Below, piece after piece: positions 4,902 through 35,697 of a DNA stretch of 35,697 nt. A program made the translations under genes and the position numbers. The DNA is from Balneolales bacterium (GTDB lineage Bacteria; Bacteroidota; Rhodothermia; Balneolales; HLUCCA01), in assembly GCA_022565415.1 (NCBI GenBank), contig JAIUMT010000001.1:1-35697 (forward strand). The letters run 5' to 3'. The stretch's first letter is position 1; each line of letters begins with the position of its first letter. The notes under the pieces were generated by a model. That model was not told where the DNA came from. It saw only the letters and a list, made by a program, of their open reading frames with translations, and did no database searches.

Positions 4902-4959
4902 TCTGGGGTAACTATTGGGGTAACTCAAATTTTACTGGGGTAACTATTGGGGTAATCCA
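4902..4959 (+). repeat. Arm-type repeat copies 2 and 3 (TCTGGGGTAACTATTGGGGTAACTCA / ACTGGGGTAACTATTGGGGTAATCCA)
   Basis: Read directly. The tandem pair is separated by 6 nt and ends 10 nt before the integrase ATG. Confidence 0.85.
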
Positions 4960-4969
4960 AAATCACATT

Positions 4970-12216: not shown

Positions 12217-12723
12217 TTAAGTCGTTAAATAATTGCCCTCAGAATCAATCAAATAATTGCCCTGAGAGTCGGTTAAAAAGGATTGTCCTTCCGGTAGTTC
12301 CGGCAAGGAGAAATCATAACGTATATCCACAAAAATGGAACTGGTTGGCTCAGCCGATCCCGTTGGTTGAAATGAGCTGGTGGCCATAATTACCAGGTTA
12401 TCGTGCATTGCAAATCGCACCAAACCGCGTACTTCCAGGGTAATCCCTGATTTGCCTGGTAACTCAATGATGTATTCAGGTTTGTCGGTAGCGTAATCCG
12501 GGTTAAACTCATTGTATAACCGCAGATATACGACTTCATCATTAGGGTTGAACGCCTTTAGGCCATAAACATCAGTTCGCCCTATGCTTACGGGTAATTT
12601 GGTATTGTTCACATCCCACGACCGATACCTTGAAAGTCCGTCAGCATTCGCTTTCCGATACGCTGCCTCGATGTTTACCAGGGAAGCGCGAATATGTGAA
12701 AGGGGCTTAATTATTGATTCCAT
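12217..12723 (-). CDS. Hypothetical structural protein (168 aa), beta-rich, C-terminal tandem DS(Q/E)GNYL(I/T) repeat
   Basis: Sits in the late operon. The C-terminus is LTDSQGNYLIDSEGNYLTT. Confidence 0.5.
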   Translation of the reverse strand: MESIIKPLSHIRASLVNIEAAYRKANADGLSRYRSWDVNNTKLPVSIGRTDVYGLKAFNPNDEVVYLRLYNEFNPDYATDKPEYIIELPGKSGITLEVRGLVRFAMHDNLVIMATSSFQPTGSAEPTSSIFVDIRYDFSLPELPEGQSFLTDSQGNYLIDSEGNYLTT

Positions 12724-13805: not shown

Positions 13806-14140
13806 GCGCTTCGGTGCTCCCTGGTTAATTCGGTGACAAATACACGACCAGAAGACGGGTTCGCCAAACTATAGGTTAACGGACCTTTAAACAGCTGATC
13901 TGCTGGCACGTCGAGTAGATTAACCACTGTTCGCGCTGGTAGCGAGAAATTGCGGTAATCTGGTGATGGCGTGCGAGTTCCGAAAGCAACAAACATGGCC
14001 GTATCGGTATCATTTTCGATGATTAAACCTACACGGTTGCCGTTTGGCTCTAACAGGCGTCCGGAATTTTCTTTGTAATCAATACGCCTTAACGCTGTCC
14101 GGATTTCGCGCGAAGGTGTATTTGCTACTGGATGGTTCAT
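13802..14140 (-). CDS. Small beta-rich structural protein (112 aa); penton-size jelly-roll candidate
   Basis: ATGA-coupled to both neighbours. Alternating hydrophobic beta-strand pattern (RVGLIIENDTDTAMFVAFG ... RVFVTEL). The fold assignment is inference only. Confidence 0.4.
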   Translation of the reverse strand: MNHPVANTPSREIRTALRRIDYKENSGRLLEPNGNRVGLIIENDTDTAMFVAFGTRTPSPDYRNFSLPARTVVNLLDVPADQLFKGPLTYSLANPSSGRVFVTELTREHRSA

Positions 14141-14892
14141 TCGTAGTACCCTTCTCCAATTACAGAAACTTGATGTGTGGTTACATTGCTGTTATTGGTC
14201 ACATACATGCTAATCGGGATGTTTCCGCCTATGTAGAATGGAATAAGCGCTGGCATGGCCATAAACTCATCGTTGAGCTGTTTCACGAACAGATCGCGCT
14301 TGATTTCATCGTTGTACACCTCAAGACTCACTTGCAGGTCATCATCACCAGTGGATCCAACGAAAAAGCGGTGAACGAGTATCGGTCGTGCCCGTGAAGT
14401 GAGGTTTACTAGCTTGAGTTGCTGCTGCGCTGGCACGTCTGCAAAACCATAGACGAATACCGGTTCGAGTATTTTGCGACCTACCTTTTGATTGAACTCA
14501 CGCCATTCCTCGAGTGTGACATGGTCATATCCGAGCAGTTGCACGTTTGCTTTCGCGGGATTGCTCCCGTCCAGATTGGTAAGCGTGATGGTTAGGAAAT
14601 TTCCACGTGCAATGATGAATGGGGCTAGCAACGATCTGAACCGGAATAGATCTTGCAAGGCAGAGATTTGTACGTTCGTAAAAATGTCACGCTCATTATT
14701 GAGCTTTGCACTGGCGAGAATGGTACCAGGGGTGTTCGTCCCAAAGGAAAGCCGGTTAAAGGCAAAATCCTGGCCATCATAGCCACGGAAATCACGGGAT
14801 ACGCTTTCTCCGGGTGGTATATCAAAAATCAGTGAAGGGGAGAATGGTGAGATTCGTTTGGAAGGACGGAATCGTTTAATCGCATTTGACAT
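14137..14892 (-). CDS. Beta-rich structural protein (251 aa); capsid-protein candidate
   Basis: Strand-like segments throughout (FLTITLTNLDG, NVQLLGYDHV, LQVSLEVYN, ISMYVTNNSNVTTHQVSVIGEGYYE). Adjacent to the 197-aa candidate. Confidence 0.4.
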   Translation of the reverse strand: MSNAIKRFRPSKRISPFSPSLIFDIPPGESVSRDFRGYDGQDFAFNRLSFGTNTPGTILASAKLNNERDIFTNVQISALQDLFRFRSLLAPFIIARGNFLTITLTNLDGSNPAKANVQLLGYDHVTLEEWREFNQKVGRKILEPVFVYGFADVPAQQQLKLVNLTSRARPILVHRFFVGSTGDDDLQVSLEVYNDEIKRDLFVKQLNDEFMAMPALIPFYIGGNIPISMYVTNNSNVTTHQVSVIGEGYYE

Positions 14893-14921
14893 GGTATTTT
14901 CGTCGATTGGTTAGTATGAAA

Positions 14922-14951
14922 CCCGGCACACAGATTGTGCTGTGTGCCGGG
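14922..14951 (-). terminator. 12-bp perfect stem-loop CCCGGCACACAG-(6 nt)-CTGTGTGCCGGG immediately after the 197-aa gene
   Basis: Read directly. On the minus strand it is followed by TTTCAT. It is likely a partial terminator or mRNA-stabilising hairpin within the operon. Confidence 0.5.
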
Positions 14952-14979
14952 ATTTGTGCGATTGCTTCGCTGGTCGGGC

Positions 14980-15573
14980 TTACTCGGCTATGAAAAGCTG
15001 TGTAACCAAGTTGAGGCGACCATAACCGGCAGTATCCCAATGGGCTGCTGTCGGGAATACCGATGCATCAGCGAACTGGATAGTGACGTTAAACACCTGT
15101 CCGGCACCTACCTGAAATGGATCAGCAAAACGGATTACACCGTTGCTTCGCATCTCAATGGCTTCGTGCAGAACCTGTGCGTTCGATGCGCCTTCCGATG
15201 CAGTTGCATGGTAGGAAGTCGTCTTGAAGTTGAAGAAATCTCCCAGACGGCCCAGCAACATCTGCTTGTTGTCTTGATCCAGCTGGATTTTGACAGAAGC
15301 GTGCTTCAAGGCATTAATGATCTTCACCGGATCAATGTTGTCCGCGGTGCGGATAACCTGAAGAGTGGTGTCGATCGACATTCCCAAAATCGCAACATCC
15401 TTGTTACCAGGAAGCGGGTTGGTAACGTAGTTGTTGTCGGTGTCAACGCGGGATGCGTTGGCCGGGAAGAAATTTGGCCGTGAGTCATTCTGAACAACAG
15501 GTTTAGTGTCGTAAATGATGCGTAAGCGTTTGTCACGCGGCACGTTGAGTTTTTTGACTATTGGAGCGTTCAT
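14980..15573 (-). CDS. Beta-rich structural protein (197 aa); major-capsid-protein candidate
   Basis: AAGGAA Shine-Dalgarno. A strong downstream hairpin is a common mark of the most highly expressed late gene. Strand-rich sequence (FNVTIQFADASVF, RLNLVTQLFIAE). Confidence 0.4.
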   Translation of the reverse strand: MNAPIVKKLNVPRDKRLRIIYDTKPVVQNDSRPNFFPANASRVDTDNNYVTNPLPGNKDVAILGMSIDTTLQVIRTADNIDPVKIINALKHASVKIQLDQDNKQMLLGRLGDFFNFKTTSYHATASEGASNAQVLHEAIEMRSNGVIRFADPFQVGAGQVFNVTIQFADASVFPTAAHWDTAGYGRLNLVTQLFIAE

Positions 15574-15650: not shown

Positions 15651-16238
15651 TCAGTAGATAAATCCGTCGTCAGAATGTTCGTTTTCGTCCAGATACCCAC
15701 TGTCATCAATAAACTGTGAGTCGGCCAGCGGTTCTGGCGTCCAGTTATTGGCGGGGTTTAACGTTTCTGCCGGTGCAAGCCGAACTGTATTTGCAGTAGG
15801 CAAGTACCCAGCCGGTGAATTCATGGCGTCAGCAAGCTGGCCACTCATGGGTAAGAATGACAGGTTTGGCATTACTGTGCGTACACCAGCGCTCACGCCA
15901 GCTGCACCCGCGCCAATACCGATATACTTCACCAGGTTGGATTTGCCCATGCCGGTGAGTGCTACACCCGCTGCCAGGGGAATACCCACAGCTGCAATTT
16001 TTTGAATGCTAGATGGAATAAATCCACTTGCAAGTCGGGTGATTTGTGTTGCTGCTACCATCCCGCCTAGGATTCCGGCTGCTGGTATAAGAAGGTCTTT
16101 CGTACGCTTCGTGACAGACGGATTACGGCGGGTGGTTCGACGTTTCGTTGTTCGTTTCATTGTTTTTTTCTGTTTTGGTTCGTGCGGATTGGTAAGAATG
16201 GCCAATTCCGCAACCGGATTTTTTGCGTAAGCGATCAT
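15651..16238 (-). CDS. Membrane protein with Arg/Lys-rich N-terminus, glycine-zipper TM region and acidic C-terminus (195 aa)
   Basis: KKTMKRTTKRRTTRRNPSVTKRTKD, then AAGILGGMVAA / GIGAGAAGVSAG, then ...DDSGYLDENEHSDDGFIY. AGGTGA Shine-Dalgarno. Confidence 0.6.
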   Translation of the reverse strand: MIAYAKNPVAELAILTNPHEPKQKKTMKRTTKRRTTRRNPSVTKRTKDLLIPAAGILGGMVAATQITRLASGFIPSSIQKIAAVGIPLAAGVALTGMGKSNLVKYIGIGAGAAGVSAGVRTVMPNLSFLPMSGQLADAMNSPAGYLPTANTVRLAPAETLNPANNWTPEPLADSQFIDDSGYLDENEHSDDGFIY

Positions 16239-16301: not shown

Positions 16302-19300
16302 TTAGTTGAGTATGCCACGGCCATCTATCATTAGGTTGTCGATTACCAGGACATCATCGAGTTGATAGACTGGTCGTTTGTGTGCGTCGAAATCGTGCAC
16401 GTAGTAATTCACTTTGTTTTTCTGGTCTCCGGGTTGCATGATTTTATCTGAGGAGTACCAAATTTTGTGCGCATACCCGATGTTTTTCATCTGCGTGTCG
16501 GGTAGATCAACCTGATAATCATTCCCGTCGGCAGGGTAGTGCTTGAATTCTTCGTGCATTCGTTGTGCAGCAGGAGCGTGTACTGTTTTTTGTGCAGGAC
16601 GCACGCGGTTAGCTGGAACAATAAAGAGTTTGGATCCTTTTGCGTCGCTGAACATGTAATCACGGCCACTAAAGGCAGCGTTATCCGTGTGGAATTTGAC
16701 TGCTCTGCCCAGGTATGCCAGTTGCAGATTACCACCGGGATTTTTGCGAACACCCGATTTAAGCATTCCGGAAGAAACCCCCAGTTTGAAAGTTTGCTCT
16801 GCCCAACTCTTGCGGGACATGAATACAGAGCGGGTTTCAGCCATGAACCGATCGTCAAAGTACTGGCCAATTGCCGGGTCTGTAGCGGTTACTCGATCAG
16901 CTTTATCCAGTAAGGCTAAAACGGCCATAGCTGCCTCCGCTACTTCAAACTTTGTCTGCTCTTCGCGGGATTCAAAAGTTTTTACGCGCTGGCCATACAT
17001 TTCATATTTGTCAATGCGCGTTTTCCGGTTGACCGGATAGCTATTGAAGAAGCGTTCGACGAAATCAAAGAGTTTCTTTTCCAAAGCTTTGTAGTCGGTA
17101 TCGCTGCCATAATAAACCCGATCAAACAGGCGTCCAACGGCATACATCATCTGGCCGTCGCGTTGGTGGGAAATCGCAAGATTCCCCAGGGAAATACCGC
17201 TGTACCTGTAATCAAGATTAATCCCGCTTTCGTAGCCACCATCTTTCTTAGTAACATAGCCACTAGTCCACCCTCTAGGCGACAGATCATTCACCAGGCT
17301 TTTGAGCGTGCGTTGTCCATCGGCAGATACCGGTGGAAGCGACTCAATATTAGCGTATGCGTAGGTTGCTTGGCCACGGCTGTACTCGTCACGTTCTTGT
17401 TTTAATGCGACGATATTGGCCTTAAACGATTGATAATCGTCCGATAAATTGTTGTACATGGATACCGCGCGTTTAAGATCCCGCGATATCTCCAGGGCTT
17501 TTTGCTTCTCAGCATCATCAAGCAGCGCCATCATAATAGTCTCGTAATCCCATCCGCCACTTTCGGTGTCCTCAGACTCCATTTCAGTATCTTTGCCATA
17601 CCACAGCTCACGGATCCAGTTGGATTTTTTGTTGAGCAATGTGTAACGGTAGGCATCCAGTGACTTGCGAAGCAGATAGTAATGAATACGAACTTCTGCG
17701 TTTACGTTGCCTTGACGAACTCCACGGCCATTGCGCTGTGTGAGTTCGCTTGGTTTCCACGGCACGTCTAAGTGATGGATGTCGGTGCAGAACTTGTTTA
17801 GATCCATACCTTCACCCATAGAGGAAGTGTTCCCAATAATGACGCGAATTTCTCCGGCATTGAAGCGCTGCTGAATCTTGATCTTTTGCTCTGGTTTGGA
17901 GTTTTCTCCACCATTAATAATTGCTATCTCGTTTTTGGGAATACCCATTTCCACAAGAGTGTCACGAAGCAACCGGTGGTAGTTACGTCCTTTGGTGGTC
18001 GTAATAGGGTCGCAGAATATGAGCTGGCCATTTTTTGCGCCATCGGTAATACTACCGTCCTTGCCCTCAACATCGCGGGATTTCTTCCAGTAGTTGTCAA
18101 CCAGCGTTTTACACATCACACCGGCCTTGCTGTCCGGCTCGATTTTTCCCGTGTCCAGCACGATATCAGCGCTATCCCCCGGAGTGGGAATGTTTTCAAG
18201 TACATAAAATGCCGGGTCCACAGCAGCGCGTGATCCGGATCCAGCAACAAACAGATAGTTGTCTCGTGAATCTTCGCCCGTTCGCTTGTTTGGGATCATT
18301 AACGGCTTATCCGACTTAATCGCATCGACACGATCATTCAGATTCGTGATAATAGCCTGGTCACGTAATCCGGGTTCTAAATACTCCGGATTGTACTTCG
18401 CTACCGGGAGAATCCGGCGCACTTCCGGGAAATCAGAAGTATCAATAAACTCAACGTAACGGTTGAAAATACCGCGTAGAGTGTCCAGATTCTTATATCC
18501 GGTTACGACTAGTTTATCCTTGAAGTTCCCCAGCATATCGGCAGTTTGAACGCTTTCCACACGTGCATACTGATTGATAAAGCTATCCACATCATCAAGT
18601 TTGAGTTGCTCGATGTAATGCGGTGCAATCGCGGAAAGAAGAATGTAAGCCTCAAGTGGCGTGTTATTCGTTGGTGTAGCGGTAAGCAAAAACACATTAC
18701 GATTGCCCATTGCCTGATTGATGTAGTGGAATTTGGCAAAGGCTTCTTCAGCTCTATCTGAGCTCGTACCAACACCAATACCTAACTCCACGGCCATACC
18801 GGACAGGAACAGATTCTTGAAATTATGAGCTTCATCAACGATTAGTGCATCGACGCCTAGTTCATCAAAGTAGATAGAGTTCAACTTTGTAGATTCGAGA
18901 GCAACAGATACTTTCTGCTCCATGTTCATCAGTGAGACGAACATTTTTTTGAGAATCTTTTGTAATGGGTTTTTGAGCGTTACTTTCTTTCCGGATGCGG
19001 ATGCTTGCACTGCTGCTAACTCGGAATCGGTAATCTGAGCGCTAATCTTGTCTATTTCTGAGCGTATCTTCTGCAGGCGTAGGTTTTGATATTCTTCAAC
19101 CAACTCAGGTGAATTCGGGATAGCCTTAAAGCCTTCATGCGTTACGAAAATGGCGTCATAGTCATTTTGCTGAGCCATCGACAACATGAGTTCTTTGTTC
19201 TTCCTGTCGGTTTTCAGGTTCAGAACGTTCGCACCAGGGAAAGCATGTTGATATTCGTCAATCCATTTCTCGACTACCTTGCTGGGCACAACAAACATGG

Positions 19301-22300
19301 GCTTATTGGCCATACCACGTTCTTTCATCAGGCCAGCCAGCAGAATAGCGGACAATGTTTTTCCGGCACCAACACCATGCGCATTGACAGCAGCGCCAAC
19401 AAGTAGCGCCTTTTCAATCCACTTCTTTTGATGATCGCGCGGTGCGAATGGCTGACCATTTGTCCATACACTTCCCATATTTGCACACGAGAACGTCTCA
19501 CCAGTATAATTCGGCTCAATGGTCACGTTGTACGTATCGTTCCAGGCGTCAACAGCTTGCTGTCGAATTTCATCATCGGCTATTTCAACAATCCACTCGG
19601 TGAACCGCTTTGGAATAAGCCGTCTCATTTTGTTGTTGTTGAGAACCTGGTCTTCCTGTGCTTTCTGCTTTAACTGGTCGTCTGCTTCGGCTGGAACACG
19701 TTGTTTTGGGTAATCGGTGCCATTTAGGTAATATTCGATAATGGATGCATAATCACCTTTCCAACCCCATCCAGACATTTGTGCCAGACTCGTATTGTAC
19801 CGCGGGATTGCCCAGGCGCGACGTGTACCTCCCAACTCACCACCGGTGGCATACTTCACGTACGCTTTGGCCACTTCAACAGGCATATACGTATTCACAT
19901 CAGCTAAATCGAAGTTGATTTGCGAGGCGGTTTTGCGTGTCGGCATCATTTCGGTAATGGCCGTGATGTTTTTAGCAATCCCTGCTTGTTTGGCTAGATC
20001 CAGTTTCTCTTTGAGATTTCCAGAAATGTATTCCGGACGAATCAGGTAGGTGCCTGAAGACGGGTCAAGGAATGCCGACGGGTCACGCTCGGCCATTTCC
20101 TTGATTTTACCCGCGGAGAAGCCCGTAATTTTGGTAAGCACGTCAATGTCGCTACGCAGTCCGGTTTGACGGCAATACAGAATGATTTCAGAAAGTTTGT
20201 CTGTGCGTAGTTTTGGCGCAAATTCTGCGTTAAAAATGGTGTCACGCTCGACGATATCGCTGAATGTTATGGATCCTTTGCCACCAGGTCGTGCGACCGT
20301 ACGAAGCTGATTATAGTCCGGAGATTGGCCGAAATACTGTTCAATGATCTTAGATTTGTCAAACCACCCGTATTGCTTTATATGCTCGTTAATCGCCTTT
20401 TTCAGATCAGTACGGATCTCTGCTTTTTGTGATGTGCTGGCCAACTCTTTTTGCGCGGATATGAGCTGTTTTAGAATAAATAGGATAGCATTGGCGGAGG
20501 CAGCTTCGTCTGGGAGTTGTACTTTGTCTGAACTTTTGAGCTGGTCGGGCTGTGGGACTGCTGCCGGAACGCGTTCAAGCGCTTTAAACGGGAAGGTGTT
20601 GAGCACCGATTCGAGTTTATCTTCATCCATTGCACCACGAACAGCGATTTGGCTACCAAACTGACCAGCGCCAATTTCGAGTGTTCCCAGAATGCAGTCC
20701 GGGTTCTTTTTGTACCATGCATTCATGTACACACCAGAGCTTTCTACCTGCTCAGATGTGATGAATATGCGATCTTGATCGGATAGATCACGCTGGGTAT
20801 CGCGCTTTTGGAAAAACATGACATCGGTAGTAACCGTTGTGCTTGCATTGGCTTCAAAAGTCGAAGACGGCAACCGGTAGGCACCTAAGAAATGAGCCAT
20901 TCTGGCCATTGCTTCCCGCGCGGACGCATTTTTTTTATCCATGGTGCCGGTCGAAGAAATCACGGCAATCAATCCACCAGGACGCACCGTTTCCAGCATC
21001 TTCAATATGAAATGATCGTGAATCTTTGGCTTTAAATCGGCAAAGGTATCGTTACGGGAATAGCGGGAGTAATTGCCGAAAGGAGGGTTTCCGATAGCTG
21101 CATTGATGTACTGCTGATGTGCAGCGAAGTCGAAGCTCTTAATGTCAGCCTGTCGGACGTCGTCAGAAGGGTAGAGTGAGCTGGCTATTTGAACGGCTAA
21201 TGTATCGTAATCAAAAGCAAGAATATTCGTGTTATCGGGCTTGGTGCCGATAAAACTACCAACTCCGCATCCGGGTTCCAGTACCCATCCACCGTCAAAG
21301 CCTAAACGTATAAGCGCTGCCCACATGAATCGGGCAAGAGAATACCGGGTGTAATGTTGGTTTAAAACACCAACATCGACGGAAAGGAGTCCGCCTTGAC
21401 CGGTGTATAGCGACAGCGTTTTTAGCTCGTCTTTGGTGTAGGAACTATGTTTTTCTTTGAGAAGTGCAGCAGCTGCACGGTTCAACTCGATACGCTCTTT
21501 TCGAGAGAGCTGAATATCTGGAGTTGTCCTTAGCGAGTAGTTTTCTTTTTGGACGGCTGGCGTAGCAAATGATCGTGCATCATGTCGCTGGCCAGATCCG
21601 CTGGGTCGATCTCGAAGCGGGGCATGTTCGGATACGGATTTTCCTCCGGATTTTGGCGCGGTTCTTTTTTGGCTGCTTCCACTGCCTTGTTCGCGGTCTT
21701 GTGAAACTGATCGTAAAGTGGTTTGAGGTCTTCTTTTGCCATATATCTCCTGAAAATTGAGGTTGATTTCTTGACCTAAGTTAGAAAATTCTAGCTCAAT
21801 CGCATCTTTAAATTCATCTTTGATTTTTCCCGCTGCTATTGCTTTTGCATAGAGCGCTACCAGCGCGTCAAAACGTTGTTCACGTTGAGCTTGAAGGGAA
21901 GGGGCTGCTGCCTGGTTGTTACGATAGCTAGACTGTTCAACTTCACGATCGATCATAACTTGTTCGGAATAAAATGCGATAATTTCACTTCCTTCGATAT
22001 TGTTAGAATCCTGGGCAATTATGCCATCATAGCCTAGCTCTCGAAGTGCTGCGTTTATCACCTGAAAATCATTTTGTAAGACTTCGTTATAATCAAGGTC
22101 AATTTGACTTTCATCATCGTTTAGATATCCCTGACGTCGAAGTTGTCTGTCGATTTCCTTCTTAATTGCTATACGCCACGCTTTTGTGGCCCGAATTTTA
22201 CCTTCAATATTATGCAAGTCTTTCTCATAGACAGGCTTCTTAATTGAGGCATATACTTGTAGTACCTTATCCCCAAATTCTGAGGCATTTTCAGGGTTAT

Positions 22301-22472
22301 CGGTCAAATATATACCAGTACCCCAACCTGGTGCATCACCAACTACGAATTTGTCGAATCTTCTGTTTGTACCGTGATATAGCTTCAGCGGGTTGCCGTT
22401 TTTATCGACTACCTTGCTGCCCTTAAACCACTGTGAAAAGCGGGTTGCACTATGTGTTTTTACTCCAGTCAT
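16302..22472 (-). CDS. Polyvalent giant protein (2056 aa): N-terminal ART-like domain + N6-adenine DNA methyltransferase + SNF2/DEAD-like helicase + about 430-aa unknown C-terminal region
   Basis: N-terminus is FSQWFKGSKVVDKNGNPLKLYHGT...GIYLT...ASEFG. MTase motif I is EPGCGVGSFIG and motif IV is GNPPFGN. Helicase Walker A is GVGAGKT, DEAH box is IVDEAHNFKN, motif III is LLTATP and motif VI is QRNGRGVRQGN. Confidence 0.9.
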   Translation of the reverse strand: MTGVKTHSATRFSQWFKGSKVVDKNGNPLKLYHGTNRRFDKFVVGDAPGWGTGIYLTDNPENASEFGDKVLQVYASIKKPVYEKDLHNIEGKIRATKAWRIAIKKEIDRQLRRQGYLNDDESQIDLDYNEVLQNDFQVINAALRELGYDGIIAQDSNNIEGSEIIAFYSEQVMIDREVEQSSYRNNQAAAPSLQAQREQRFDALVALYAKAIAAGKIKDEFKDAIELEFSNLGQEINLNFQEIYGKRRPQTTLRSVSQDREQGSGSSQKRTAPKSGGKSVSEHAPLRDRPSGSGQRHDARSFATPAVQKENYSLRTTPDIQLSRKERIELNRAAAALLKEKHSSYTKDELKTLSLYTGQGGLLSVDVGVLNQHYTRYSLARFMWAALIRLGFDGGWVLEPGCGVGSFIGTKPDNTNILAFDYDTLAVQIASSLYPSDDVRQADIKSFDFAAHQQYINAAIGNPPFGNYSRYSRNDTFADLKPKIHDHFILKMLETVRPGGLIAVISSTGTMDKKNASAREAMARMAHFLGAYRLPSSTFEANASTTVTTDVMFFQKRDTQRDLSDQDRIFITSEQVESSGVYMNAWYKKNPDCILGTLEIGAGQFGSQIAVRGAMDEDKLESVLNTFPFKALERVPAAVPQPDQLKSSDKVQLPDEAASANAILFILKQLISAQKELASTSQKAEIRTDLKKAINEHIKQYGWFDKSKIIEQYFGQSPDYNQLRTVARPGGKGSITFSDIVERDTIFNAEFAPKLRTDKLSEIILYCRQTGLRSDIDVLTKITGFSAGKIKEMAERDPSAFLDPSSGTYLIRPEYISGNLKEKLDLAKQAGIAKNITAITEMMPTRKTASQINFDLADVNTYMPVEVAKAYVKYATGGELGGTRRAWAIPRYNTSLAQMSGWGWKGDYASIIEYYLNGTDYPKQRVPAEADDQLKQKAQEDQVLNNNKMRRLIPKRFTEWIVEIADDEIRQQAVDAWNDTYNVTIEPNYTGETFSCANMGSVWTNGQPFAPRDHQKKWIEKALLVGAAVNAHGVGAGKTLSAILLAGLMKERGMANKPMFVVPSKVVEKWIDEYQHAFPGANVLNLKTDRKNKELMLSMAQQNDYDAIFVTHEGFKAIPNSPELVEEYQNLRLQKIRSEIDKISAQITDSELAAVQASASGKKVTLKNPLQKILKKMFVSLMNMEQKVSVALESTKLNSIYFDELGVDALIVDEAHNFKNLFLSGMAVELGIGVGTSSDRAEEAFAKFHYINQAMGNRNVFLLTATPTNNTPLEAYILLSAIAPHYIEQLKLDDVDSFINQYARVESVQTADMLGNFKDKLVVTGYKNLDTLRGIFNRYVEFIDTSDFPEVRRILPVAKYNPEYLEPGLRDQAIITNLNDRVDAIKSDKPLMIPNKRTGEDSRDNYLFVAGSGSRAAVDPAFYVLENIPTPGDSADIVLDTGKIEPDSKAGVMCKTLVDNYWKKSRDVEGKDGSITDGAKNGQLIFCDPITTTKGRNYHRLLRDTLVEMGIPKNEIAIINGGENSKPEQKIKIQQRFNAGEIRVIIGNTSSMGEGMDLNKFCTDIHHLDVPWKPSELTQRNGRGVRQGNVNAEVRIHYYLLRKSLDAYRYTLLNKKSNWIRELWYGKDTEMESEDTESGGWDYETIMMALLDDAEKQKALEISRDLKRAVSMYNNLSDDYQSFKANIVALKQERDEYSRGQATYAYANIESLPPVSADGQRTLKSLVNDLSPRGWTSGYVTKKDGGYESGINLDYRYSGISLGNLAISHQRDGQMMYAVGRLFDRVYYGSDTDYKALEKKLFDFVERFFNSYPVNRKTRIDKYEMYGQRVKTFESREEQTKFEVAEAAMAVLALLDKADRVTATDPAIGQYFDDRFMAETRSVFMSRKSWAEQTFKLGVSSGMLKSGVRKNPGGNLQLAYLGRAVKFHTDNAAFSGRDYMFSDAKGSKLFIVPANRVRPAQKTVHAPAAQRMHEEFKHYPADGNDYQVDLPDTQMKNIGYAHKIWYSSDKIMQPGDQKNKVNYYVHDFDAHKRPVYQLDDVLVIDNLMIDGRGILN

Positions 22473-22473: not shown

Positions 22474-23850
22474 TTAAGCGATTGCTTGAGATAAAAGGGT
22501 TTCCAACCTGTCCATGCGGGAATCGAATGTTTCTTTTTGCTTCGATTTTGGGCGTATTTTGCGCGGTTTTACGGTTCGCTTTGGTGCAGCATCTTTTAGC
22601 GTGTTGAACCGATCGTTGGCTTTGTCGCCATTGATATGCTCAAAGATAGGTTTGCCGTCCTGTCTGATTTGGTAGTTTCCACCGGTGTAAATAAGGTCGA
22701 TTTCACTTCCGGATTTCGTTTTGCTCGATCGCAACACGCTGCCATCTTTAATCTCTGCTTTTCGTGCATCTTCGACTTTAACAGTTGGTCTTGACTGTGT
22801 AGCTGGTTTGGTTTTCGTCGCTGGGGTGCTGGCCTTAACCGTTTTAGGTTTAGATACAGTCTTATCCCCTTTTTTGGCGTATTCCTTTTCTTGGCGACGA
22901 TATTCTTGAGCACCCAACACTTTGCGTGCATGTGCTTGATTTATGATTTCAATAACGGTAGAACCTGTTTCGGTGGACATCTTTTTCCAGGCCGACACAA
23001 AGGTGTCCGCGCAATGGGTATGAATTACCTTACCAGATTGAAGCATTTCCAAATACGATTTCTTGTTTTGACGCTTGTATCGGAAGGAAACCGGATTGCG
23101 ATCGACCGTACAGCTGTGCGCAAAGTCCACCATGTCGTTGAGGCGTTTAATCCCGCGGATTTTATGTCGCTTGGCTATGTCTGATAGTGGGATTTTGAAC
23201 GGTACGGGTACCGGGTTTTGGCGGGGTGATGCTTGTTTCTTTCGATCGCTGGTCTTGGATTTGCGTTGATCGAAATTTATTGGCATCTCCTGAGCATCGT
23301 GTGGTAGTCGATTTTTCTCTACATAGACAACACCATCGGCAACGCGTAACTCCACATCAACCATGTGTGCCAGCATGGATGAACCTTTAAACTTCCCGTC
23401 TTTGGTGGCATGGTTAACGACAATGAAGAAAATATCCTCTTGCTTACACCACTCATACAAATCAATTTGTTCTTTTTCGCGCAGATGCGCCATGTGCGCA
23501 GAATCTAACACCAGCACTTTAGCCTTGTGTTTAATCACGTCCTGCTTGAGGTGGTGTAATCCCAGATAGTCGCCAACAAGAAGATCTTTCACCCCGGCAC
23601 GCATCCGTTCGATTTTATCTTTCATGGTAGCGCCAGCACCTTCTTCACTCGAGCAGTACAGCACGGTTCCACGACGCTCCGATAGTCCTTTGGCCAACAT
23701 GATTGAAACCGTCGATTTTCCAGAGAATTTTACACCCCATATAAATACAGACGTATTGCTTTGGGCACGACCAATAATCTTCTCGAAGCCTGGAATATAG
23801 AATCCCGGGAAGTTTGTTTTTACCAGATCGGATGCGCGAACGACACTCAT
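22474..23850 (-). CDS. RecA/RadA(Sms)-like P-loop ATPase with long lysine-rich C-terminal region (458 aa)
   Basis: Walker A is WGVKFSGKST and Walker B is KVLVLDS. NHATKDGKFKGSSMLAHMVDVEL...EKNR parallels RadA (HVTKEG.IAGP..LEHMVD...KNRFG). The C-terminal half is rich in K/P/T (KPKTVKASTPATKTKPATQ, KRTVKPRKIRPKSKQKE). Confidence 0.6.
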   Translation of the reverse strand: MSVVRASDLVKTNFPGFYIPGFEKIIGRAQSNTSVFIWGVKFSGKSTVSIMLAKGLSERRGTVLYCSSEEGAGATMKDKIERMRAGVKDLLVGDYLGLHHLKQDVIKHKAKVLVLDSAHMAHLREKEQIDLYEWCKQEDIFFIVVNHATKDGKFKGSSMLAHMVDVELRVADGVVYVEKNRLPHDAQEMPINFDQRKSKTSDRKKQASPRQNPVPVPFKIPLSDIAKRHKIRGIKRLNDMVDFAHSCTVDRNPVSFRYKRQNKKSYLEMLQSGKVIHTHCADTFVSAWKKMSTETGSTVIEIINQAHARKVLGAQEYRRQEKEYAKKGDKTVSKPKTVKASTPATKTKPATQSRPTVKVEDARKAEIKDGSVLRSSKTKSGSEIDLIYTGGNYQIRQDGKPIFEHINGDKANDRFNTLKDAAPKRTVKPRKIRPKSKQKETFDSRMDRLETLLSQAIA

Positions 23851-24203
23851 TAGAATCTCCTCAGAATGATACCCGATACTAGGCCGCCAATAGCAATACC
23901 TAACGCAACGGGTGCGACTTGTTTTAATAATGATTTCGGCCCACTTTCACCGTCCCCCGATATCAAATCCACTACTTTCTGCGCATCAATGTGTTTGAAG
24001 TACTCATCAACCACACGTGCATTAGCTTGGTAGCTGTTTCGAAGCACTTGCGGATTTGGCGACAGGTCTTTGGCGATTATTGCCTCCGTAACAAAAAAAC
24101 CTCTGCGATCTCTGGTAAGCGAGTCTACACCACGCACAACCGTATCACGCCAATCGTTGATTTCTTCGAATTCAGCTTCTTGTATGTGAGAAAATTGGCT
24201 CAT
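23850..24203 (-). CDS. C-terminally anchored membrane protein (117 aa)
   Basis: Soluble acidic N-terminal domain. The C-terminal anchor is VAPVALGIAIGGLVSGIILRRF followed by the stop. Confidence 0.55.
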   Translation of the reverse strand: MSQFSHIQEAEFEEINDWRDTVVRGVDSLTRDRRGFFVTEAIIAKDLSPNPQVLRNSYQANARVVDEYFKHIDAQKVVDLISGDGESGPKSLLKQVAPVALGIAIGGLVSGIILRRF

Positions 24204-24862
24204 TTAGACAGGGCTTTTTTTAGGTCACGTTGAATTTGTGGCCACAATGGATAGGTGAAATAGATTCCAGCGCCAACTAGCGCCAGAATGGTGATATTTC
24301 GCGTTGTTTTGGCGACGCGTTCCATGGTTCCAGCCGGACCCACAACAGCGTTCGTAAGACGCTCTGATAGAGGTAATGTTGGTAATGTGATAACACCCGC
24401 GTTTACCAGTGCATTTTGACTGGTATCAAAAAGGAAGTCGGATGTTGCTGCAATTGGCTCTGCTTTGCCAGATTCAATGTCTTCTCTGGATGTGCGTTCT
24501 TTGAACACTTCCAGTCGAATCCAGTGATTTTTGTCTGGCCGGAAGGTTGAATCGAAAATGAGTCTAGCAATCCCAGAACAATTGGATAACTGTGAGGTCA
24601 CCACATTAGTAAATGCCCATATTTTGCCAGCATGATCATATCGGCCACGGGCTACCACTACTGCGTCCACGCATCGAACCGGACCACCAATAGCGAACCA
24701 ATTCTCGGGACGAAGCACAGCGAATCCAGCGCGTTCGGTCTGCACCTCAACATCGAGTGCGAACGGTGTTCCCGCGGGTGGAAGACCCGAATCCGGGTAT
24801 CGCTTCGTAATGCGAAGCTGCAAGCCCGTTTGATTAATGACGTCGCTTAAATAGTGGTTCAT
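24200..24862 (-). CDS. C-terminally anchored protein (220 aa) with N-terminal HYLSDV motif
   Basis: MNHYLSDVINQ... The anchor near the C-terminus is NITILALVGAGIYFTYPLW. ATGA overlaps on both sides. Confidence 0.6.
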   Translation of the reverse strand: MNHYLSDVINQTGLQLRITKRYPDSGLPPAGTPFALDVEVQTERAGFAVLRPENWFAIGGPVRCVDAVVVARGRYDHAGKIWAFTNVVTSQLSNCSGIARLIFDSTFRPDKNHWIRLEVFKERTSREDIESGKAEPIAATSDFLFDTSQNALVNAGVITLPTLPLSERLTNAVVGPAGTMERVAKTTRNITILALVGAGIYFTYPLWPQIQRDLKKALSK

Positions 24863-25245
24863 CGTCGTTTCCGTTTGCGTGAGATTAAAGCTACTGCTGC
24901 GCCAACCACCACCGCTCCCCCTACAAAGAGCCAGGTTTTATTGTGTGTGTGCCCTGTGGTGGCAGTGGTGGTTGTGGTCGTAACAGCTACATCGTTGTTT
25001 GTACCGGAATCTACTCGTGTTGGTGGTAGTGGGTTTACCGGAGTCAACACGTTGTCTCTGATACTATCTATGATGGTGCCAATTCGAGAGCTGTGCCCGG
25101 TATTAGAACCAGTATCAGTACCTTGATCTGGTATCAACCCATCATTTCTAGAACCGTTATCTGGTTGAAATGGATCTATGTAGTAGTCTAGTTCGCGCTG
25201 GTGACGAGATTGGCCTACATCGTTTAAATATCCTGATCCACGCAT
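24859..25245 (-). CDS. C-terminally anchored protein (128 aa) with N-terminal GSGYLND motif
   Basis: MRGSGYLNDVGQ..., a T-rich linker (VAVTTTTTTATTG), then the anchor WLFVGGAVVVGAAVALISRKRKRR followed by the stop. Confidence 0.6.
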   Translation of the reverse strand: MRGSGYLNDVGQSRHQRELDYYIDPFQPDNGSRNDGLIPDQGTDTGSNTGHSSRIGTIIDSIRDNVLTPVNPLPPTRVDSGTNNDVAVTTTTTTATTGHTHNKTWLFVGGAVVVGAAVALISRKRKRR

Positions 25246-25247
25246 GA

Positions 25248-25520
25248 TTACTTCTTGTTGTAGAGTTTATATGCGCCATAACCCAAAGCTACCAGTGCTA
25301 AAATGGTTAGGAGTCTGGGACTTACAACCGTTGCTGTAACCGGAGTCACAGGCACAAATCGTCCGTCAACGAGATTTTCATTACCCGTTAGCGTGTTCGG
25401 TGGGTAGGATACAGGTGGGTTTACGTGAACCGGATAGCCTGGTCCTGGTACGGGATAGCCTAGATCACCCAAAAACCCAATGTCTGATATATATCCGCTT
25501 TTTCCTGTTGTTCTCGTCAT
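25248..25520 (-). CDS. C-terminally anchored protein (90 aa) with N-terminal GKSGYISD motif and GYP-rich segment
   Basis: Start moved to the ATG at 25520 (AAGAGG Shine-Dalgarno 6-7 nt upstream). This removes the overlap with the upstream gene and aligns MTRTTGKSGYISDIGFLGDLGYP with MNRTSGKSGYLSDVSNLNFLGYP of 8573-8965. The anchor is LTILALVALGYGAYKLYNKK. Confidence 0.6.
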   Translation of the reverse strand: MTRTTGKSGYISDIGFLGDLGYPVPGPGYPVHVNPPVSYPPNTLTGNENLVDGRFVPVTPVTATVVSPRLLTILALVALGYGAYKLYNKK

Positions 25521-25524
25521 GGCA

Positions 25525-25851
25525 TTACCTCTTTTTCGTTTTAGCAAATTTGTACACACCGTAACCGGCTGCTGCAATCACGACGCCAGTCAGTGCAATC
25601 GTTGCAAATGATCGAGCTGGACGCGCTGTAACTTGGACTTCCGGCAATGTTCGTTGAACAGGCGTGTTTGGGTTAAAACTGATAGGCATTATGCCTGCGT
25701 TTGTAAATGGTGGTGTCCATGTCTGGTTACCACCTTGATTTACCGGCATGGTTGATACCAGGTTATCGATCACTGGATTTACGATGAGGTCACGCCACCA
25801 TTTGCTGTCATCAAGAAAACCGGATTGGCACGAATTACACTGCGTATTCAT
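25525..25851 (-). CDS. C-terminally anchored protein (108 aa) with N-terminal SGFLDD motif
   Basis: The ATG at 25851 is preferred over the GTG at 25884, which would overlap the upstream gene by 26 nt. MNTQCNSCQSGFLDDSKWW... The anchor is IALTGVVIAAAGYGVYKFAKTKKR. Confidence 0.55.
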   Translation of the reverse strand: MNTQCNSCQSGFLDDSKWWRDLIVNPVIDNLVSTMPVNQGGNQTWTPPFTNAGIMPISFNPNTPVQRTLPEVQVTARPARSFATIALTGVVIAAAGYGVYKFAKTKKR

Positions 25852-25858
25852 TGTTTGA

Positions 25859-27037
25859 TTATTTAAGTAAGAGGTAGGTTCCACCGGCAGCAGCTATTAC
25901 ACCGATACCGACGAGAAGTGGATTGATGCCAGCTCCAGTACTTAACATCGTCGACATATTTTCCGGTATTATTGCTGCTGCTGTGCTTTGTGGCTTATTT
26001 AGCTCCTCAGCGCGAGCAAATACCGCTTGCATGATTTCGGGCTTCGATTTTACATGAATTTCCCAATCGCCATTCCAGGGTAATTTCTCATTGAGTGCCT
26101 GAATGAGATAGGGATTAGCTTGTGCATACTGCAACATGGCATGTGCAGCTTCATGATTGTTGTAGTGAATGTAAACTTGTGGGCTCATTCCCATTTGTCG
26201 CAATCCACTTACAGCTGCATCGCGACTTGCGCGACGTTCTGCACGTCCTGCTGCACGGTTGGTGAAGATGCCGGTGAATCCACCAATTACAGCGCCAACC
26301 GCTGTACCTACACCCGGGAATAGTGCTGTGCCAATCGCAGCTCCCGTTGCTGATCCTGCTGCTACGTGATTCGTAGCATCATCTAAATAACCGGATTTAC
26401 CGGTCGGTGTTTGAGTTTCGTAATGATCTGACATGGTTTCTGCGTTACTGTGCACATCGGAAAGCATAACTTCCCAACGTTTGGTTATCTGTTCTGCAGG
26501 AATGCCAACTCCTGCTGATTTTGCTAGCGTAACGTCGAATGGGTACCAGCGGCCATTATGTTCAAATTCAAGATATATGTGTGAAAACTGTGTGGGATTG
26601 TTGTTTTTTTGACCAATCACCACCACACGAGAGGGAATACCCAGGCTCATCAACAATGATCCGGCCAGTATGGTCATATCATCGCAATCACCTGATTTCA
26701 GTTTAAGCGTTACTTCTGCGCCTTGCAGCCATTCGATATGATGTGGATCTCGAACGTATGCAATGGTGTGTTTCATCCAGTTATACACCGCGCTGGCCAC
26801 GTGGCCAAAATTTCGTCGATCAGGATGTCCGGTTCGCTTATCAACCGGAATCCCTTGTGTTATTTCCAGTGCTTTTTGTCGCACCTGAAAATTGCCTCTA
26901 CCATCGAGAATTAATTCGCGAATTTTATCAACTACACCAGCGAGTCCGGGGTAGCTTCCGCGAGATTTACGAACTTCTGAGGCCGTACGCTCCTCGTCTG
27001 TTCGGTTCCTCGTAAGTGTGAGGCTTGGGAGAGTCAT
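25859..27037 (-). CDS. Transglutaminase-like (papain-fold) cysteine protease-domain protein with glycine-zipper region and C-terminal anchor (392 aa)
   Basis: SGDCDDMTILAGSLLMSLGIPSRVVVIG...FSHIYLEFEHNGRWYPFDVT matches the Cys/His/Asp core G.C..fa....l.r.lGIP.R.v.G...H.w.e......W...D.t. An internal GKSGYLDD motif is followed by GSATGAAIGTALFPGVGTAVGAVIGGFTG and the terminal LLVGIGVIAAAGGTYLLLK. Confidence 0.75.
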   Translation of the reverse strand: MTLPSLTLTRNRTDEERTASEVRKSRGSYPGLAGVVDKIRELILDGRGNFQVRQKALEITQGIPVDKRTGHPDRRNFGHVASAVYNWMKHTIAYVRDPHHIEWLQGAEVTLKLKSGDCDDMTILAGSLLMSLGIPSRVVVIGQKNNNPTQFSHIYLEFEHNGRWYPFDVTLAKSAGVGIPAEQITKRWEVMLSDVHSNAETMSDHYETQTPTGKSGYLDDATNHVAAGSATGAAIGTALFPGVGTAVGAVIGGFTGIFTNRAAGRAERRASRDAAVSGLRQMGMSPQVYIHYNNHEAAHAMLQYAQANPYLIQALNEKLPWNGDWEIHVKSKPEIMQAVFARAEELNKPQSTAAAIIPENMSTMLSTGAGINPLLVGIGVIAAAGGTYLLLK

Positions 27038-27258
27038 GGTTTAGTAATTACATCAACTACTCTGCCAGTGGTGGCAACCGGGTTAAATCCAAATTCTTTG
27101 CCGATCATGGCCACTTGTTCTTTGGTCATGTCGCCAAAGGTGATCAGAATCGCGCATGGCTTATCACGCTGGGTTACCAGGCGAACAGCCGATTCTTGCA
27201 CAAGCTTTGCCGTTTGCTCATGCAGCTGGGTTATGCCGATAGTTTCAATTTTGCTCAT
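27034..27258 (-). CDS. Small hypothetical protein (74 aa), weak Phd/YefM-like N-terminal pattern
   Basis: IGITQLHEQTAKLVQESAVRLVTQRDKPCAILITF resembles the antitoxin N-terminal fold. It is ATGA-coupled to both neighbours and no toxin-like partner is present. Confidence 0.35.
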   Translation of the reverse strand: MSKIETIGITQLHEQTAKLVQESAVRLVTQRDKPCAILITFGDMTKEQVAMIGKEFGFNPVATTGRVVDVITKP

Positions 27259-28649
27259 ATCTTTTGCTTAAAGACTTCCAATACATTCACGATAAGTGCG
27301 CGTACTGGATCGGGTGGGTTGATTTGAAATGTGGAGAAAAGCATGTTGGTTGCTTCTTTTGCCGGCATGTACTTGAGCACGGTTTTAGCCTGGTTCAAAT
27401 TGGCTATGAGTGGCTCAATAACAAGGGCTACACGCTGCGGTGTTACCTTGCGTTCGATCGCTTGAGTAGCAACTTGTTCAGCGATCATCATCCATTCGCG
27501 GGCACCTGGTTGTACACCTTGCTGCGCTAAAATCGTCAACTGTTTGCCGACCATTTCAGCAATAGCGGAACTGTCCGGAGATGCTTTAGCTACCATTGCT
27601 GAAACAGCATTCTCAATGATGGTATTGGCAAAATTCTGAAATGCTTGTTGCATAATTTGATCAGGGGAGGGCTTTTGTTGTTGGTTTGTGCGCACTTCCA
27701 CGGCATCGCTCACATGAGCATCTGAAACAGGTTGAGGTGCATTGGCGTTGGCCATTACTTTTTCGATGAGAGGCATGAACTTATTTAATGAGTTCATCCA
27801 GGCGGGTGTTTCGTCGTCGGCATCCTCATCGTCATTAATGCCGTTTAGCTCATTTTTGAGCTGGGCTATCGCAAGTTCTTGCTTAACTGCAGAGAGCTCT
27901 GATCGTAAATTTGATATTTCGTTTGAATGCTGCTGGATAAGTGTCACCTTTTCATCGGCCAGGCGTTGGGTTAGATCAGCATTTCGTTGCGCAAGCTCAT
28001 TGTTTCGCTGCATGTGTGACTGTACATCAGCTTGAAGTAATTGCAAACGGTGATCGTAGTCACCGCGAATTTCTTCTTTAATTCTGGTCCGCAAGGTTTC
28101 AGCATCTAAAGCGGATAGAGAAGGAGAGGCATCTTTACTTTTTTTGCCATTTTCAGGCGAATCGATCGTAAAGCAAATTTCGATTTCAGCACCTTCTTCG
28201 TCCGTTGTACGAAGTAGGTATTCACCACCTTGACGCAGATCAGTTTTGGCAATTTTACTAAGCTGAGCTGGATTGTAACGCGGGATGGCCTTCATGTAGA
28301 TCGGTCGATCATCACTCAGACGCATTAGAATGCCATGAAATGGAAAATCGGATAGAATCTCCATTTCCGTTTTAGCAAACGTACTGTCAATTTTGGGGTT
28401 AGCTGGCCTACCTACCGGGTTGCGATATAATGGTTGATCCGCAGTAGCAACAGTTTGTTTTTGCCGTTCCATTTCTTCAAGAGCATCCTGACGACCTCGG
28501 TGATAATCACCGTTAGTTACGCTATCGTTTAGATAATTGACATCACGTCTATATTCCGCATCGGCTAAAATATCACTGTGATGTCCATTTAGATGGGTAT
28601 TGGGATCCATTGCGGTTGTTTGGTGATCAGGTGAGTAGGTGAGTATCAT
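27255..28649 (-). CDS. Coiled-coil protein (464 aa); scaffold/assembly-factor candidate, first gene of the late operon
   Basis: Central heptad-like region LQLLQADVQSHMQRNNELAQRNADLTQRLADEKVTLIQQHSNEISNLRSELSAVKQELAIAQLKNEL, an acidic linker DDEDADDE, and a helical C-terminal third. The start is uncertain (weak RBS). Confidence 0.45.
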   Translation of the reverse strand: MILTYSPDHQTTAMDPNTHLNGHHSDILADAEYRRDVNYLNDSVTNGDYHRGRQDALEEMERQKQTVATADQPLYRNPVGRPANPKIDSTFAKTEMEILSDFPFHGILMRLSDDRPIYMKAIPRYNPAQLSKIAKTDLRQGGEYLLRTTDEEGAEIEICFTIDSPENGKKSKDASPSLSALDAETLRTRIKEEIRGDYDHRLQLLQADVQSHMQRNNELAQRNADLTQRLADEKVTLIQQHSNEISNLRSELSAVKQELAIAQLKNELNGINDDEDADDETPAWMNSLNKFMPLIEKVMANANAPQPVSDAHVSDAVEVRTNQQQKPSPDQIMQQAFQNFANTIIENAVSAMVAKASPDSSAIAEMVGKQLTILAQQGVQPGAREWMMIAEQVATQAIERKVTPQRVALVIEPLIANLNQAKTVLKYMPAKEATNMLFSTFQINPPDPVRALIVNVLEVFKQKI

Positions 28650-28739
28650 ACGGGGATCGCTATCACCTCTAGAAAATGAAATGGCAACTGTGCACGTTTG
28701 CCACGTTCACGATCCCCTTCTTTCGGGTGGTTTTAATAG

Positions 28740-28811
28740 TGGCGACAGGTGGATTCGAACCACCGACCTCCTGGGTATGAGCCAGGCGAGCTACCACTGC
28801 TCCATGTCGCA
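28740..28811 (-). tRNA. tRNA with CAU anticodon, initiator-like (tRNA-Met/fMet type)
   Basis: The reverse complement folds as a 72-nt cloverleaf: TGCGACA TG GAGC AGTGGTA GCTC G CCTGG CTCATAC CCAGG AGGTC GGTGG TTCGAAT CCACC TGTCGCC A. The D-arm GGAGCAG..GGTAGCTC closely resembles E. coli tRNA-fMet. It has an A11:U24 pair and positions 1:72 are unpaired (U/C). No CCA is encoded. Confidence 0.85.
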
Positions 28812-35551: not shown

Positions 35552-35576
35552 CAAAAAAGTATGAGTATTCTGAAAT
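35533..35576 (+). repeat. Direct repeat GAGTATTCTGAAAT x2 (35533-35546 and 35563-35576), 30-bp spacing, in the switch region
   Basis: Read directly. The second copy ends 4 nt before the CI-like ATG (35581, equal to 11) and contains a possible -10 TATTCT. Confidence 0.8.
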
Positions 35577-35697
35577 ATCCATGAGGATATTTTCATTATT
35601 CGATTATCTAAGAGAGCATAAGTCCATGAATTACAGCTCTATACTCAAGGGCGCAGGTATCAATCACTCATTTATGAGTAATATTAAAGCTAGGAAA
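35571..35697. repeat. Terminal overlap, copy 2 (identical to 1-127)
   Basis: Read directly. Confidence 0.95.

Follow-up and report, generated by a model that had tools for sequence, protein, structure and literature searches.

Late genes and the carriers of the peptide

We analyzed a short peptide that recurs in the late proteins encoded by a 35,697-nucleotide stretch of DNA from a Balneolales bacterium (contig JAIUMT010000001.1; hereafter the window). The terminal 127 nucleotides of the window are identical at both ends (1-127 and 35571-35697), and the window is therefore a complete circular genome of ~35.57 kb, neither a fragment nor a clearly integrated prophage. Judged by homology and gene order, it is the genome of a tailless phage with an internal membrane, a relative of Salisaeta phage SSIP-1. 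The peptide, written S-G-[YF]-[LI]-x-D in the lineage of the window, is referred to below as the tag or motif. A preliminary description of the window had listed nine copies, and all nine are present on the minus strand where they had been placed, bar one small shift: QGYLNDD exists but occupies residues 114-120 (22113-22133) rather than residues 113-119 (22116-22133) of its protein. The carriers are as follows.

8573-8965, minus strand: 130-amino acid (aa) protein with no membrane segment; GKSGYLSD at residues 6-13 (8927-8950).
12217-12723, minus strand: 168-aa soluble protein of the vertex/spike gene block; C-terminus SFLTDSQGNYLIDSEGNYLTT (12220-12282).
15651-16238, minus strand: 195-aa basic membrane protein, gp44-like; acidic C-terminal tail QFIDD-SGYLDE (15684-15713), ending DGFIY.
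16302-22472, minus strand: 2056-aa polyvalent virion protein; doubtful copy QGYLNDD (22113-22133).
24200-24862, minus strand: 220-aa gp35-like protein; HYLSDV at residues 3-8 (24839-24856).
24859-25245, minus strand: 128-aa tail-anchored protein; GSGYLND at residues 3-9 (25219-25239).
25248-25520, minus strand: 90-aa tail-anchored protein; GKSGYISD at residues 6-13 (25482-25505).
25525-25851, minus strand: 108-aa tail-anchored protein; SGFLDD at residues 10-15 (25807-25824).
25859-27037, minus strand: 392-aa transglutaminase-like protein (Pfam Transglut_core, E=2e-12), orthologue of the SSIP-1 structural protein gp34.
26378-26401, minus strand: the motif copy of the transglutaminase-like protein, GKSGYLDD, at residues 213-220, within the linker that follows the catalytic core.
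27255-28649, minus strand: 464-aa coiled-coil protein, scaffold-like; weak copy NYLNDSV at residues 38-44 (28518-28538).

Inspection of these proteins reveals additional copies that were absent from the earlier list. The 90-aa protein carries a second copy, GFLGD, at residues 15-19 (25464-25478), QFIDD stands beside SGYLDE in the gp44-like tail, and the C-terminus of the 168-aa protein holds three tandem copies (SFLTD, NYLID and NYLTT). Most carriers are small proteins in which a low-complexity linker connects an N-terminal tag, preceded by a leader of only 2-9 residues, to one hydrophobic helix at the C-terminus, which closes with G-x-Y and a few basic residues. The preliminary description had placed five copies near the N-termini of small membrane-anchored proteins. 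Four of these assignments hold; the fifth carrier, the 130-aa protein, lacks a predicted membrane segment and continues after the tag into Gly-Tyr-Pro repeats and a helical C-terminal half. Such repeats, an unusual low-complexity element, follow the tag both in this protein (LGYPGYPGYPGYP) and in the 90-aa protein (LGYPVPGPGYP), and they are retained in a 71%-identical orthologue.

The C-terminal ends of the carriers also recur. A G-x-Y ending followed by 2-6 basic residues is common to the proteins encoded at 8370-8573, 25248-25520, 25525-25851 and 25859-27037, and the C-terminal helices of relatives additionally share a pre-helix start, N-x-(M/W)-L-L-Y-G-G. These common helix ends suggest a second shared constraint on the tail-anchored proteins.

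To express the recurrence of the tag numerically, observed counts were compared with per-protein shuffles. SG[YF][LI][SND]D occurs five times in the 7,074 residues of the late operon (0.004 expected), G[YF][LI][SND]D six times (0.06 expected) and [YF][LI][SND]D nine times in the late proteins (0.86 expected), while GKSGY[LI].D is found three times against an expectation of 0. Because the first of these patterns had been picked post hoc, every reduced-alphabet 6-mer with one wildcard was also enumerated across the proteome. The top-ranked pattern of this unbiased search was [ST]G[FYW][LIVM].[DE], present in six proteins versus 0.23 expected (-log10P 6.8), and the best value obtained from 40 shuffled proteomes was 5.9. 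The shuffle enrichment and the top rank rule out chance or composition as the source of the motif, and the earlier claim that it recurs beyond chance is borne out. In a six-frame scan, all motif matches fall in real gene frames and none in alternative frames.

A repeated DNA element was likewise considered. Nucleotide identity between copies ranges from 0.25 to 0.71, and synonymous third positions match only about half the time. Since codons differ among copies, the repeat exists at the protein level, as had been proposed, and a DNA repeat or gene conversion is ruled out. A limited literature search did not find a description of such a motif, which agrees with the preliminary statement that no described system carries this signature.

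The assignment to the SSIP-1 group rests on the following neighboring genes and on gene order.

22474-23850, minus strand: packaging-type ATPase; 32% identity to SSIP-1 gp40 (tblastn, E=1e-16); PHROG ATPase, E=2e-20.
14137-15573, minus strand: two capsid-protein genes, 251 aa gp47-like and 197 aa gp45/46-like (tblastn; synteny).

The protein encoded at 14137-14892 matches SSIP-1 gp47 with 26% identity over 90% of its length (tblastn, E=5e-7), and the 197-aa protein (14980-15573) is assigned as a gp45/46-like capsid protein by position and size only. A gp48-like protein is encoded at 13802-14140, and the vertex block also includes proteins of 357 and 426 aa. The late gene order matches the annotated order of SSIP-1 gp33-gp48: coiled-coil protein, transglutaminase-like protein, small membrane proteins, ATPase, giant methylase/helicase protein, basic membrane protein and capsid proteins. 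The coiled-coil gene lies upstream of the transglutaminase-like gene as gp33 does in SSIP-1, the ATPase gene bounds the cluster of motif-bearing membrane proteins, and gp45-gp48 of SSIP-1 carry a structural-protein annotation. SSIP-1 is tailless, with an internal membrane and two major capsid protein types (PMC6356626). Homology and the many tail-anchored proteins point to a lipid membrane within an icosahedral capsid for the window phage as well. Elsewhere, the circular genome encodes an integrase (4712-6142) and a restriction-modification-like pair (696-3093), and a tRNA-Met gene (28739-28811, minus strand) separates the late structural module from the early/replication module.

The 2056-aa protein deserves separate description. 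Pfam places ART-PolyVal at residues 23-172, N6 DNA methylase at 447-571, SNF2/ResIII helicase at 1010-1268 and Helicase_C at 1515-1588. Its motif copy falls within the folded ART-PolyVal domain and may be coincidental. The protein occupies the position of SSIP-1 gp43, which is marked structural in GenBank; the correspondence is positional. Its C-terminal ~100 residues (16302-16600), ending in VLVIDNLMIDGRGILN, are in relatives attached to the ATPase C-terminus instead (L004, L069, L076, L081 and L002, these being loci of the family described below); this domain has moved between two adjacent virion genes.

A second peptide, [KRQ][KRQ]NP, also recurs in the late proteins, with five occurrences versus 0.64 expected (TRRNPS, PRQNPV, KKNPD, VRKNPG). 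It is found at residue 37 of the 15651-16238 protein, residue 210 of the 22474-23850 protein and residues 588 and 1909 of the 16302-22472 protein. Related loci likewise have RRNP/RKNP in their gp44-like proteins and ATPase fusions, and conservation is strong at the N-terminus of the gp44-like protein, AKNP(A)ELV(I)LxNP.

Conservation and lineage forms of the tag

Relatives of the window were collected from homologue-bearing contigs and from profile scans of public collections, which gave about a dozen family loci. A family locus was defined by co-occurring hidden Markov model (HMM) matches to the transglutaminase-like protein, the gp35-like protein, the ATPase and the capsid protein, and these markers were found together in at least 10 loci. 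Gene starts in the metagenomic loci are predictions, and the loci sampled are few and share common descent. A single-sequence capsid scan of IMG/VR found no relatives, and the ATPase profile mostly drew unrelated phage ATPases. Word-indexed homologue searches returned four matches for the gp35-like protein and one for the 130-aa protein; an exhaustive profile search yielded 28 representatives of the gp35-like family.

In relatives of ~70-90% identity, the tag is retained while leaders and downstream linkers diverge, with forms such as CQSGFLED, KQSGYLSD, SRFLDDSGYLIN and SRSGFLSD. Gene by gene, orthologues of the 108-aa protein read CQSGFLDD and CQSGFLED, those of the 90-aa protein read GKSGYISDMGFLGD and KQSGYLSDLALSD with diverged flanks, and those of the 128-aa protein read MRGSGYIND and MKSTGSRFLDDSGYLIN, the latter holding two copies. 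The orthologue P0054, 71% identical to the 130-aa protein, reads MKATSRSGFLSDIASLNFLGYPGYP. The linker of the transglutaminase-like protein carries GKSGFLDD, GRSGYLND, ASGFLAD, GSFLAD or SGFVTE in its orthologues, always at the same position and with variable flanks. In gp44-like tails, SGLLED is found in L002, YLGE, YLGD and YLGE in L004, and FLGD and GLSD in L076. The weak copy in the coiled-coil protein is lost in the ~70%-identity relative L164, which reads DGSFGTHSK, and YLEP occupies this region in relatives at greater distance.

Comparison between lineages indicates that the tag changes form lineage by lineage, with all copies of one genome shifting together across unrelated proteins. 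L002 and L003 use M-x-x-SGFL-x-D; L004 uses YLGD/YLGE and L076 uses FLGD/FLGE, in L004 including the three copies of the gp44-like C-terminal tail. In L078 and L082, M-x-S-x-[FY]-[VIL] opens 6/6 and 6/7 consecutive cluster proteins, respectively, and x-L-S-D often follows 8-20 residues later. The 28 gp35-like representatives display a related arrangement, where SG[FY][VI]H at the extreme N-terminus and a downstream GLSD are separate and become fused in the lineage of the window. Family-wide, the motif can be written as an N-terminal S-x-[FY]-[VIL] and/or x-L-[SGN]-D.

The positional bias was quantified for cluster proteins, that is, small C-terminally anchored proteins encoded between the transglutaminase-like gene and the packaging ATPase. 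With counts pooled across loci that are not phylogenetically independent, [FY][LIVF] lies at residues 3-13 in 25/45 cluster proteins versus 27/144 other open reading frames (ORFs; p=4e-6), and [SGND][FY][LIVF] in 20/45 versus 9/144 (p=1.6e-8). The motif is thus non-random, conserved and position-biased, and its copies evolve in concert.

As to whether motif and position persist in orthologues, close relatives retain both, but the motif is unrecognizable in L068, L081 and SSIP-1, where the enzyme is nonetheless present and a recognizable window-type motif is absent. A relaxed SSIP-1 pattern, G.?F[LVAS][SGD]D in gp36, gp37 and gp53, occurs four times versus 0.69 expected (p~0.01); being post hoc and weakly enriched, it was not counted as presence. 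The 117-aa tail-anchored family directly upstream of the ATPase (23850-24203 in the window) has an N-terminal signature of its own, I-E-[DE]-A-x-I-I, which reads HIQEAEFEEI in the window and replaces or accompanies the main tag in L002, L003, L004, L068 and L076.

Taken at the level of sequence, the retention of motif and position in relatives upholds the earlier proposal that the motif is a selected, shared recognition element.

Cleavage, docking and other readings

To understand what such an element might be recognized by, we first considered the transglutaminase-like protein, which the preliminary description had favored as a protease acting at the motif. Its layout comprises a catalytic core (residues 80-168), a disordered linker, a glycine zipper, helices and a C-terminal membrane helix, and across homologues C118 and H153 of the Cys-His-Asp triad are invariant and D168 nearly invariant. 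The nearest folds to the AlphaFold2 (AF2) model in Foldseek are the putative cysteine proteases 3isr and 3kd4, a transglutaminase, LapG, CPR-C4 and PNGase, with the phage-derived cell-wall endoisopeptidase PeiW lower among the matches. The predicted fold is protease-like but also spans transglutaminases, PNGase and cell-wall isopeptidases, and the activity of the enzyme is itself predicted.

According to the cleavage reading, this membrane-anchored enzyme would cut at the motif, trimming the leaders, freeing its own catalytic domain and clipping the C-terminal tails. The conserved triad and the cysteine proteases among the nearest solved folds are consistent with such a role, as is the motif copy borne by the enzyme itself. 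The enzyme and the motif-bearing tails would probably share one side of the membrane, and a hydrophobic residue two positions before the variable one suits the hydrophobic P2 preference of papain-type enzymes. A precedent is provided by I7, whose cleavage of A17 and of core proteins occurs at AG|X (PMC4213562). In the AF2 model, by contrast, the catalytic core is confident and the motif of the enzyme is disordered (predicted local distance difference test, pLDDT, ~26-31) and is not placed in the active-site cleft, a weak result given the shallow alignment. No purpose is evident for losing 5-12 N-terminal residues or for cleaving leaders of 2-9 residues, and strict N-terminal placement is unexpected for protease sites. 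In L068, L081 and SSIP-1 the enzyme is present and a recognizable window-type motif is missing; a diverged site is possible there.

The enzyme also appears outside the gene cluster. A scan gave 207 transglutaminase-like relatives and the best-scoring 80 were retained; few of the loci fetched carry the other family markers, so that the enzyme is not tied to the motif gene cluster; PHROG annotation of the non-family contigs with transglutaminase-like genes did not reveal the phage type. The same fold serves as a phage cell-wall endoisopeptidase in PeiW, and the tail-anchored layout that the enzyme has in common with the virion SLT transglycosylase suggests that it acts in entry through the cell wall. 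With its own motif disordered and three lineages holding the enzyme without it, cleavage by the transglutaminase-like protein is a doubtful reading of the motif, and the analogy to adenain offered in its support amounts to a resemblance and nothing beyond. Cleavage and docking could possibly coexist, as they do for vaccinia A17/I7 or adenovirus pVI/adenain.

The location of the tag points elsewhere. It stands where flexible tails end freely. In most carriers this is the extreme N-terminus of a small protein that one C-terminal helix would hold in the internal membrane; the other sites are the transglutaminase-like linker and the C-terminal tails of one polytopic membrane protein and of two soluble virion proteins. 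In the models of the transglutaminase-like and gp35-like proteins, the tag falls in low-confidence, flexible segments of low pLDDT. The gp35-like protein is modeled by AF2 as an Ig-like beta-sandwich with a C-terminal membrane helix and the tag on a low-confidence N-terminal tail; Foldseek comparison of this model returned a generic Ig-like sandwich and no functional clue. The tandem C-terminal copies of the gp44-like and 168-aa proteins suit avidity in binding. Because of the chain-end position, the tandem copies, the flexible segments and the concerted change of form, we favor a docking peptide read by one partner: a short linear element for docking or targeting, through which membrane proteins and a small number of soluble virion proteins would attach to the same putative partner. 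We assign this reading a probability of about 0.5. Of the two mechanisms put forward in the preliminary description, docking or sorting fits better, given the terminal position, the tandem copies and the flexible tails of unrelated proteins, and cleavage found no positive support.

The same observations bear on an inherited module, in which the tail-anchored proteins would be diverged paralogues that kept their ends and the peptide would self-associate in hetero-oligomeric strand zippers or dip into the membrane interface, with no external partner. Extended N-terminal similarity links the 130-aa and 90-aa proteins (M[NT]RT[ST]GKSGY[LI]SD..[FL]LG..GYP), the G-x-Y ending is common to the C-terminal helices, and L002 encodes two paralogues beginning METVHSGFLG and MQTVHSGFLG. 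Common descent of this kind does not extend to the unrelated proteins that bear the motif elsewhere (the transglutaminase linker, the gp44-like C-terminal tail and the 168-aa C-terminus), the concerted change of form across unrelated proteins needs a shared constraint, and an acidic residue beside an aromatic one fits poorly with an anionic bacterial membrane. We regard this module as improbable.

Covalent modification or a leader peptide would be a further use for a short terminal sequence. The gene for a GT4 glycosyltransferase (8946-10037) overlaps the start of the 130-aa motif protein, and the run of a short polar or basic leader into G-[FY]-L-x-[DE] bears a superficial likeness to the prepilin sequence G|F-T-L-I-E, cut by a host peptidase. 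The conserved positions of the motif are an aromatic residue, Leu and Asp, with no Ser/Thr acceptor among them, which opposes glycosylation, and the Bacteroidetes O-glycosylation sequon D-[ST]-[AILVMT] fits only NYLNDSV, one of nine copies. In class III type IV prepilins, the leader ends in Gly and is followed by Phe/Met, Glu at +5 and ~20 hydrophobic residues. The motif instead has its acid at +4, no hydrophobic helix follows it, and several copies are internal or C-terminal. Glycosylation or a type IV prepilin-like leader is accordingly very improbable as the function of the motif.

For the docking peptide, we propose the following mechanism. The tail-anchored proteins would enter the cytoplasmic membrane of the host and keep their N-terminal portions on the cytoplasmic side, and the exposed tags would bind one putative partner by addition of a short strand. 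The partner would most plausibly be the underside of jelly-roll capsomers or pentons, or else a scaffold. Binding would mark a phage-specific membrane patch, tether the membrane to the capsid and recruit non-membrane cargo. The binding target, the membrane topology and the role in assembly are what we infer in this scheme. A more far-reaching form is tentative and, in our estimate, merits less confidence than docking as such: the tag would be a virion 'zip code', necessary and sufficient to sort tail-anchored proteins into the membrane patch and to load soluble cargo, read by the jelly-roll lattice or scaffold, with optional later clipping by the transglutaminase-like enzyme to free the tether.

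The C-terminal strand of the gp47-like capsid proteins, VS[FLV][LI][AG]E.Y, was noted alongside. The capsid genes of L004 and L076 end in VSFLAETYKV and VSFLGETYRI, and that of the window in VSVIGEGYYE (14137-14160). The likeness of this strand to the tag (S-F-L-x-E) may be coincidence, or the tag may mimic a capsid-protein strand.

Several points weigh against docking. The common partner of the tag is putative, and by the positive-inside rule the basic residues that follow the C-terminal helices would favor the reverse orientation. The motif is not universal, given the three lineages (L068, L081 and SSIP-1) that lack a recognizable window-type form, and the 25/45 and 20/45 counts come from loci that are not phylogenetically independent. 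The SLT transglycosylase is tail-anchored too and lacks the motif. Finally, the Leu of YLSD is among only nine invariant or nearly invariant columns of the 28-member gp35-like family, and it directly precedes the first strand of the folded domain, so that in the gp35-like model its conservation could be partly structural.

Short terminal peptides that target or tether virion components are known; the new element is a tag on about ten proteins of an internal-membrane phage, most of them tail-anchored. How such phages select membrane proteins and bring vesicle and capsid into register is known in outline only, from PRD1 and PM2 (PMC6356626). A six-residue tag provides a direct experimental handle on particle incorporation, could serve to load foreign proteins into lipid-containing particles, and offers a sequence signature by which a barely sampled phage group can be found and annotated in metagenomes. 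If the zip-code form is true, the tag would be the equivalent, in a prokaryotic virus, of the signals by which vesicle coats sort their cargo.

Comparison with known systems

In phage T4, with its capsid targeting sequence, and in adenovirus, with pVI and adenain, shared terminal peptides direct virion proteins into the particle and a maturation protease then removes them. The T4 tag binds the scaffold core, and the cleavage motifs are L/I-x-E for T4 and (M/L/I)xGG-x or (M/L/I)xGx-G for adenain. Unlike the window phage, these particles are membrane-less or of other architecture; their cleavage motifs are unrelated to the tag, and processing is demonstrated there and hypothetical here.

Vaccinia offers a likeness in its components, namely a short N-terminal tail of a membrane protein, a jelly-roll lattice, a lipid membrane and a cysteine protease encoded alongside. 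The I7 protease has a fold that differs from the transglutaminase-like fold. During vaccinia assembly D13, a jelly-roll scaffold, is tethered by the membrane protein A17 and later set free by a cleavage that depends on I7 (PMC8971458, PMC4213562). A17 is a single membrane protein, in contrast to the tag on about ten proteins of the window. I7 cuts at AG|X, no sequence homology links the two systems, and binding and cleavage are proposals only for the window phage.

The virion architecture class of SSIP-1 is shared with HCIV-1 and HHIV-2, which are vertical single beta-barrel viruses. In these, N-terminal residues 3-7 of VP7 bind beneath the neighboring jelly-roll protein VP4 with Ile and Leu buried, and the membrane-proximal proteins GPS and VP13, which have C-terminal helices, sit under and position capsomers and vertices (PMC6414509). 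The docking strand is there part of a capsid protein rather than of membrane proteins, and the hosts are archaeal. A motif shared by several proteins is not reported for HCIV-1/HHIV-2, and no sequence relation to the tag is detectable.

In models of PRD1 and PM2 assembly, phage-encoded membrane proteins collect in one patch of the host membrane, and capsid proteins enclose this patch from the cytoplasmic face; P3 and P6 act as capsomer templates, and transmembrane proteins register capsomers on the membrane (PMC6356626). These phages differ in their double jelly-roll capsid proteins and unrelated membrane proteins, and a sorting or docking motif is not described for them (PMC6356626). Set beside all of these systems, the tag of the window has several features of a virion targeting or docking peptide: it is short, terminal, flexible, common to unrelated virion proteins and conserved in orthologues.

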